A DNA stretch of 17,538 bases from a virus. Below are positions 13,250 through 13,480 of the stretch, piece after piece. The notes beneath the pieces are model-generated. The model saw nothing but the letters and a program-made list of their open reading frames with translations. It ran no database searches and had not been told where the DNA came from. The position numbers and the translations under genes were made by a program. The stretch lies in the UHGV virus genome UHGV-0202355. One strand, written 5' to 3'. The stretch's first letter is position 1. Each line of letters starts with the position of its first letter.

Positions 13250-13419
13250 ATCCCCTCCTGACGTTTTAAACATGCATCTTGTGAACACCTTTTCAAAAAG
13301 CGTTATAAAGTGCGTTATATGTTGACCAAAAAACACGCAAAATTAACATACTAAAAATAAAATTCGTTTAAATTCAATGCATTGGAAAGATGATGATGAT
13401 GAATGAAAATGCAAAAACT

Positions 13420-13480
13420 AGCCTTTTTCCGCGACGCTCCCGCCCCGTGGCAGGCCACCCCACCGGAAGGACCCGCACAA
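13420..13480. other. cos site: candidate cosN (12-nt cohesive end, about 13434-13445) with flanking cosQ-like block
   Basis: Minus strand reads GCGGGTCCTTCCGGTG...ACG GGGCGGGAGCGT CGCGGAAAAAGG. The lambda genome ends as I recall them are ACGGGTCCTTTCCGGTG...ACG | GGGCGGCGACCT CGCGGGTTTTCGC. The flanks match, 8 of 12 cosN positions match, and the distance to the terS ATG is about 185 bp (about 190 in lambda). Confidence 0.65.

Follow-up and report, generated by a model that had tools for sequence, protein, structure and literature searches.

A probable lambda-like cos site beside a DUF1441-type terminase small subunit gene in an Escherichia prophage

Comparative analysis of a 17,538-nt viral genome (UHGV-0202355; the whole stretch is hereafter the window) indicates that the region around 13250-13480 is very probably the cos site of a lambda-like Escherichia prophage of the mEp460 / cdtI / Gifsy-2 type. 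Its cosQ and cosN are already known from the ends of deposited phage genomes, and the site is an ordinary member of a well-known kind. Its cosB, as judged by alignment, belongs to a widespread class that accompanies DUF1441 small terminase subunits (TerS) and has a lambda-like tripartite layout. The lambda paradigm is extended, not overturned. An earlier sequence-only reading had described the order cosQ, ACG, a 12-mer, CGCGG, AT-rich DNA and terS on the minus strand; all of these elements are present, and both the description and its coordinates were correct.

cosQ, cosN and the ends of related phage genomes

Distances are given in bp from the predicted left end, where bp n lies at 13446 - n and bp 1 is the first G of the 12-mer on the minus strand. 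The elements at and around the predicted cut are:

13468..13474, minus strand: cosQ heptamer GGGTCCT, read in the sequence, 22 bp before the predicted top-strand nick
13434..13445, minus strand: cosN, the predicted 12-nt 5′ cohesive end GGGCGGGAGCGT, with ACG/CGCGG flanks as in lambda
13411..13433, minus strand: cosN-proximal conserved spacer CGCGGAAAAAGGCTAGTTTTTGC, bp 13-35 from the left end

ACG, GGGCGGGAGCGT and CGCGG follow one another at 13448..13429 on the minus strand, and we infer nicks at 13446/13445 (window minus strand) and 13434/13433 (plus strand). These two predicted nick sites are 12 bp apart and each has CG dinucleotide flanks, as expected of a cosN. The cosQ heptamer is the same as that of lambda, and relatives keep it as GGGTCCT or AGGTACT. 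Element order is the same as in lambda and spacing nearly so, with 22 bp (23 in lambda) from cosQ to the nick and the terS start at bp 197 (191 in lambda).

The resemblance to lambda cos proposed by the sequence-only reading was borne out in one part of the site and not in the other. Alignment of the cosQ-to-cosN block with the joined ends of lambda gave 43 identical positions in 64 columns, a score reached by 1 of 1000 shuffled sequences, whereas no sequence similarity was detected between the two cosBs (90 of 188 columns; shuffled sequences averaged 94). Aligned without gaps, the 12-mer is identical to that of lambda at 8 of 12 positions. The mismatches (positions 7, 8, 9 and 11) all fall within the variable right half of cosN, and the GGGCGG left half and the CG flanks are identical. 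Feiss and colleagues described that half of cosN as naturally variable, and cosQ and the CG flanks as conserved (PMC4669245). Among the relatives compared here, the right half varies even on an otherwise identical cosB, reading ...GAGCGG in E. coli 52F4 and GGGCGGAAGGCG in another locus (L064). A comparison of cosN in L064 and two further loci (L008 and L012) with window positions 13434-13439 raises the point that virions with mismatched ends could arise from co-resident prophages. The spacer CGCGGAAAAAGGCTAGTTTTTGC is near-invariant among all enterobacterial relatives, phages cdtI and Tritos included.

The candidate 12-nt end coincides exactly with the start and end of two deposited records, in agreement with the sequence-only reading. 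The genomes of cdtI (AB285204) and Tritos (OV696610, a linear record) begin at GGGCGGGAGCGT, as GGGCGGGAGCGTCGCGGAAAAAGGCTAGTTTTT, and finish in ...CCTGCCACG, that is, ...GGGTCCT(N19)ACG (...CCACG), with both ends falling exactly on the predicted nick. The cosQ-to-nick stretch of cdtI is identical to that of the window, and that of Tritos departs at a few spacer positions. The record of Hafnia phage yong2 starts exactly at bp 13 (CGCGG...) and finishes with its 12-mer; like those of cdtI and Tritos, its ends are supporting rather than decisive evidence, as all three may have been set by similarity to lambda. In the LLS record, the homologous 12-mer GGGCGGCGCGCT is annotated as the 12-nt 5′ cohesive end, inferred from mEp213 and an analysis by Feiss (PMC12315714). 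For cyanophage Cr-LKS3, 5′ cohesive ends 9 nt long were reported at the lambda-homologous position (PMC9303873). In our searches, the Cr-LKS3 TerS is a distant DUF1441 relative. A literature text search for the 12-mer string returned no phage paper.

In cdtI and Tritos, the 12-nt end and the next 20 bp or more (~25 bp) are identical to the window, and the head and tail genes are ~86% identical. In contrast, their cosB is unrelated after ~bp 37, with (GGC)3 in place of (ATC)4 at the R3 position and different repeats downstream, and their DUF1441 TerS is just 40% identical to that of the window. The comparison of the window with cdtI would illustrate a specificity swap, with a different presumed packaging specificity carried on the same cosN. 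Lambda and phage 21 have a common cosN with different cosB/TerS specificity modules. The mosaicism of cdtI and Tritos relative to the window appears to parallel that situation.

Terminase genes and gene context

The two terminase genes lie directly downstream of cosB:

12758..13249, minus strand: terS, small terminase subunit of the DUF1441 family, 163 aa (PF07278 and PHROG 141)
10656..12758, minus strand: terL, large terminase subunit of the lambda gpA type, 700 aa (PF05876 GpA_ATPase, 1e-71; PF20454 GpA_nuclease, 1e-85)

We place the terS start at the ATG at 13249, which is preceded by an AGGAGG Shine-Dalgarno sequence at 13259..13254, and not at the upstream GTG of the mechanical ORF. TerS matches Pfam PF07278 with an E-value of 5e-39 (134 bits; cut-off 35.1) and falls in PHROG 141, terminase small subunit, at 6e-72. 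The gene is followed directly by terL, then by a small W-like ORF and a lambda-family portal gene. The large subunit is thus of the gpA type as in lambda, whereas the small subunit belongs to Pfam DUF1441 and not to Phage_Nu1. DUF1441 proteins are still listed as of "unknown function" in Pfam and NCBI, yet here one is encoded at the terS position beside a lambda-type cos.

An AlphaFold2 model of TerS built from a multiple sequence alignment (pLDDT 79) predicts a winged helix-turn-helix (wHTH) with beta-alpha-alpha-beta-beta-alpha topology at residues 9-55, followed by long helices. A single-sequence model of residues 1-62, consisting of two long helices, contradicts the alignment-based model and was discarded. 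Foldseek searches against viral models retrieved terminase small subunits at E-values of 2e-7 to 1e-6 and, for the N-terminus, MerR/excisionase-type wHTH proteins. Matches in the PDB were weak, among them MerR-type wHTHs and the DNA-binding domain of gpNu1 (1J9I; TM 0.55, 24% identity, E 0.69). Alignment of TerS with lambda Nu1 by hhalign was colinear but weak (E 1.2e-3, probability 19%). Sequence searches of the PDB with TerS gave no meaningful match, and Pfam assigns it to DUF1441 only, with no Nu1-family membership. On the combined basis of the wHTH model, Foldseek and hhalign, we predict that TerS works like a Nu1-type TerS, though it lies outside the Nu1 sequence family.

Among lambdoid coliphages, the mEp460 / phi458 / Ayreon / cdtI group shares ~87% identity with the window. 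Upstream of cos, the window carries genes for two holins and an M15 peptidase endolysin, together with about six small ORFs. Homology and context thus predict that the packaged DNA carries these lysis genes and small ORFs at its right end, as the sequence-only reading had proposed for the accessory genes. An ORF after the endolysin gene (15438-15707, minus strand) has a signal-peptide-like stretch ending in the lipobox LLVGC, and may encode a spanin or a Bor-like lipoprotein. An Rz-type spanin (PF03245) was not found in the window; one is present in the Escherichia relative L047 and in cdtI.

Layout of cosB

From the end of the 12-mer to the terS ATG there are 184 bp, close to the earlier estimate of about 185 bp, with a GC content of 28-38% against ~52% in the flanks. 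Within this interval we assign the following elements:

13387..13404, minus strand: R3-equivalent ATTCATCATCATCATCTT, bp 42-59, at the position of lambda R3
13372..13384, plus strand: IHF-like site (I1-equivalent) ATTCAATGCATTG, followed by an A/T tract (bp 62-95)
13343..13350, minus strand: R2-equivalent TATGTTAA, bp 96-103, inverted relative to R1
13318..13325, minus strand: R1-equivalent TCAACATA, bp 121-128, with the invariant core G.TC..CA (alignment of 16 cosBs)
13263..13292, minus strand: conserved block AAAGGTGTTCACAAGATGCATGTTTAAAAC, bp 154-183, directly upstream of the Shine-Dalgarno sequence

On the plus strand the triplet run in the R3-equivalent reads GATGATGATGATG (13389-13401). 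It is the sole such run in the window, where 0.05 would be expected by chance. Because a (CAT/ATC)n element at the lambda R3 position is shared throughout the layout described below, we regard this (GAT)n run as the R3-equivalent and the best candidate for a TerS site. A coding role for the run was rejected; a 50-aa ORF (13351..13503, minus strand) extends across cosN and lacks conservation as a reading frame. This ORF translates the CAT run as HHHH and is not to be annotated as a gene. The adjoining putative IHF site departs from the consensus WATCAANNNNTTR at a single position of 13, and just 8 matches of this quality occur in 17.5 kb; phi458 and cdtI have a perfect match at the homologous position.

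The repeats within the window's own cosB are degenerate. R2 and R1 show dyad symmetry at 7 of 8 positions, but the R3/R1 and R2/R1 similarities found in this cosB alone (7/10 and 10/16) are not above shuffled controls, and R2 and R1 were therefore assigned by positional homology only. Positional homologues of the R2 element TATGTTAA in relatives read GATGTCGAA, AGATGATGAT or CAGTGTCGAA. A repeat search of the window returned a 24-nt direct repeat with 71% identity that joins the R3 and R1 regions at a spacing of 74 bp.

For comparison, we gathered ~50 loci with a DUF1441 terS from GTDB genomes, annotated phages, and contigs carrying the window TerS or its closest relatives. All enterobacterial members and one Pasteurella phage share a common motif, in which cosQ is followed after ~22 bp by ACG, GGGCGG-N6 and CGCGG-raaa-GGCtaGTTTTT. 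A single layout recurs in ~30 cos sites from Escherichia, Salmonella, Citrobacter, Enterobacter, Rahnella, Hafnia and Pasteurella, comprising a (CAT/ATC)n element at bp ~43-58, an IHF-like TTGAT core and a co-varying inverted R2/R1 pair. Of ~33 true cos arms from several genera, 23 have at least three CAT units in a row within bp 39-62, for which the background rate is 0.004 per zone; such counts overstate independence, since the sequences used for conservation are related. Aligned from the nick, relatives have the TTGAT core at bp ~67-72, followed by the A/T tract, and then elements at bp ~96-105 and bp ~118-130, of which the second is an inverted copy of the first.

Lambda R3 occupies bp 50-65 (PMC9026076), and the "complex" cosBs of lambda-like phages have an R3-I1-R2(inverted)-R1 architecture (PMC4669245, PMC9026076). 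Our alignments indicate that the family layout is this same architecture. In the window, as in lambda, the R3 position holds a putative TerS site with an IHF-like site adjoining it, followed by a candidate inverted copy and a candidate direct copy. Unlike in lambda, the R word has CAT periodicity or is of the TCnnCA type, and R2 and R1 are only ~25 bp apart instead of ~50. The simple cosB of phage N15 and the Rpp-redirected cos of PICIs have one critical site at the R3 position, adjoining a lambda-like cosN (PMC4669245, PMC9026076). The window differs from both in retaining R2/R1 homologues and the IHF-like site, and from PICIs in encoding a full terS-terL pair instead of an rpp gene.

Repeats that are degenerate in the window are statistically clear in some of its relatives. 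In Fels-1, Gifsy-2, VT1-Sakai, phi458 and LLS, the R3/R1 direct and R2/R1 inverted repeats are significant and lie at the same coordinates. The clearest tripartite cosBs are those of the Salmonella prophages Fels-1 and Gifsy-2, whose DUF1441 TerS are 40-46% identical to that of the window. Fels-1 has CATCATCATCATG, AGATGATGAT (inverted) and TTCATCATCTT, with an inverted repeat of 10/10 and a direct repeat of 9/10; Gifsy-2 has GTCAGCACTGAA, CAGTGTCGAA (inverted) and TTCGACACTGAA, with an inverted repeat of 10/10. The right halves of cosN in both prophages differ from that of the window, as does the R word of Gifsy-2. The R3/R1 direct repeat at ~74-bp spacing scores 13/16 in phi458 (0 of 500 shuffles), 12/16 in LLS (7 of 500) and 10/16 in the window. 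In the mEp460/phi458/Ayreon and mEp213/LLS groups, with TerS 57-90% identical to the window's, R3, TTGAT, R2 and R1 lie at the same distances from cosN as in the window. In the LLS class terS starts at bp 130 and R1 overlaps the start codon, whereas the window class is ~67 bp longer.

Treating the arms as pairs in an alignment of 16 distinct cosBs, we found 75% of R2/R1 cells to be complementary. Shuffling lowered this figure to 65.6%, with none of 500 shuffles reaching the observed value, and sliding the partner arm lowered it to 21-48%. Cells changed on both sides numbered 24, against 11 expected. The invariant core of the pair, TG..GA / TC..CA, is TCnnCA read in opposite directions. The resulting comparative map of cosB (R3 CAT run, IHF core and R2/R1 dyad) supplies candidate binding sites.

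The 30-bp block AAAGGTGTTCACAAGATGCATGTTTAAAAC is near-identical in all long-spacer relatives, where the neighboring cosB differs, and is similar to the sequence around R1 and the start codon in the short-spacer class (AAAAAGTGTTCACCATCATG). Possible roles for the block are those of a fourth TerS site or of an element controlling translation.

Packaging, alternative readings and specificity

From these features we propose nick positions, binding by TerS and IHF, and a packaging direction as follows. The DUF1441-type TerS would bind cosB through its N-terminal wHTH during packaging, first at the ATC/CAT run of the R3-equivalent (bp 42-59). IHF would probably assist by bending the DNA at bp ~62-95, which would bring R3 beside the inverted R2/R1 pair at bp ~96-128. 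The gpA-type large subunit would thereby be placed on cosN, where staggered nicks 12 bp apart would leave 5′-GGGCGGGAGCGT cohesive ends. Translocation of the DNA would start at cosN and proceed by way of terS and terL into the head and tail genes, and cosQ would assist in cutting the next cos.

We consider it unlikely that the site is instead a relic in a defective prophage, homologous to a working cos and no longer cut or used. A cryptic state is common among Escherichia prophages, and the R2/R1 words of the window sub-lineage are more degenerate than those of relatives, and internal repeats are not significant. A sibling with identical cos and TerS (L060, GCA_003982485.1, region 5492-7887) has a terL cut to 331 aa, followed by a tyrosine integrase gene and a Bro-N gene, and another mobile element appears to have inserted into terL there. 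In the window itself, however, terS, terL (700 aa), portal and the downstream head genes are full-length, although defects may lie in other parts of the prophage. The exact TerS, annotated as "MULTISPECIES: Escherichia", is found on 161 contigs, and cosQ, cosN and R3 are intact and identical or near-identical across many loci.

The AT-rich stretch might alternatively be only a terS leader or regulatory region, in which the R2/R1 dyad would form a hairpin, in RNA or DNA, acting as an attenuator or terminator, and (ATC)n would be a neutral microsatellite. A stem would equally show dyad covariation, (CAT)n is a simple repeat prone to slippage, and the opposite strand has one weak promoter-like match. 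Yet the position (bp ~43-58) and length of the run are kept across genera while the flanking cosB diverges, and Tandem Repeats Finder reported no array in cos. The same word also recurs in direct orientation at R1 of phi458, LLS and Fels-1, which a stem leaves unexplained. A hairpin role for R2/R1 is argued against because the segment lacks a stable RNA fold (-5.7 kcal/mol, z -0.38), its minimum-energy structure containing no R2-R1 pairing; Rfam searches found no family in the cos region. Taken as a whole, a purely regulatory origin is highly improbable.

The sequence-only reading had proposed two kinds of TerS site in cosB. The (GAT)n run stands as the best candidate, being conserved at the lambda R3 position, and the second proposal, a direct repeat of TATAACGC, does not stand as a conserved repeat:

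13319..13312 and 13307..13300, minus strand: two copies of TATAACGC, bp 127-134 and 139-146, with a 12-bp period

As an exact 8-mer repeated within cosB, the pair has the form of a recognition site, and its first copy overlaps the conserved 3′ flank of R1 (...CATATAACGC; CATCGAACGC and CACTGAACGC in relatives). The second copy, however, is missing in all other relatives compared, including sister lineages with the same 196-bp spacing and TerS 90-96% identical to that of the window. These read TATAGCGC...TTTTGACC or TGTAGCGT...TTTTGACC, as in an Escherichia locus (L047, TATAGCGCATTTTTTGACC) and a Salmonella locus (L057, TGTAGCGTATTTTTTGACC). In a comparison with phi458-type sequences, an 11-bp insertion would seem to account for the second copy. 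Even where TerS is identical, as in locus L061, the first copy is mutated (TGTAACGC). By these alignments the second copy is specific to the sub-lineage, and the pair is very unlikely to be a TerS recognition element. Packaging by a pac/headful mechanism was rejected, given a terL of the gpA type and an intact cos motif.

Returning to the reading of the region as a cos site in use, we tentatively suggest that DUF1441 TerS may define one or more packaging-specificity classes distinct from those of lambda, 21 and N15. Such classes would have a critical R3 site built of (CAT)n triplets, with TCnnCA at its core and several possible reading registers, and the module made up of cosB and the 5′ part of terS would be swapped on an unchanged cosQ-cosN. 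Part of this proposal is a possible co-change within the window sub-lineage. TerS there has Cys in place of the His of other members at position 22 (codon 13184-13186), where the predicted recognition helix begins. In the same lineage the R2/R1 words differ by a symmetric C:G to T:A change, with TGTTAA/TCAACA in place of TGTCGA/TCGACA. The two changes may represent protein-DNA co-variation; R3 is unchanged and the lineages are few. The cosB map also yields a set of naturally occurring, presumed specificity swaps in which cosN stays the same. By homology, the predicted genome ends and orientation are fixed for a common Escherichia prophage family, and the coordinates are ready for cos-plasmid, transduction and satellite (PICI) studies.

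Two hairpins lie upstream of cos on the minus strand. The first, at 13655-13705, is very stable, with a 17-bp stem (CATTACAGCAGCCCC...GGGGCTGCTGTAATG; -29.2 kcal/mol, z -6.8). ORF 13709..14011 has its stop codon directly before this hairpin, and cosN lies ~210 bp further downstream. The hairpin has no U-tract after it on either strand, and is found in phage cdtI too. The second, at 14027-14046, resembles an intrinsic terminator, with 8 pairs (7 GC) followed by TTTTT, and sits between ORFs 14068..14313 and 13709..14011; sub-threshold Rfam matches at this position reflect the terminator only.
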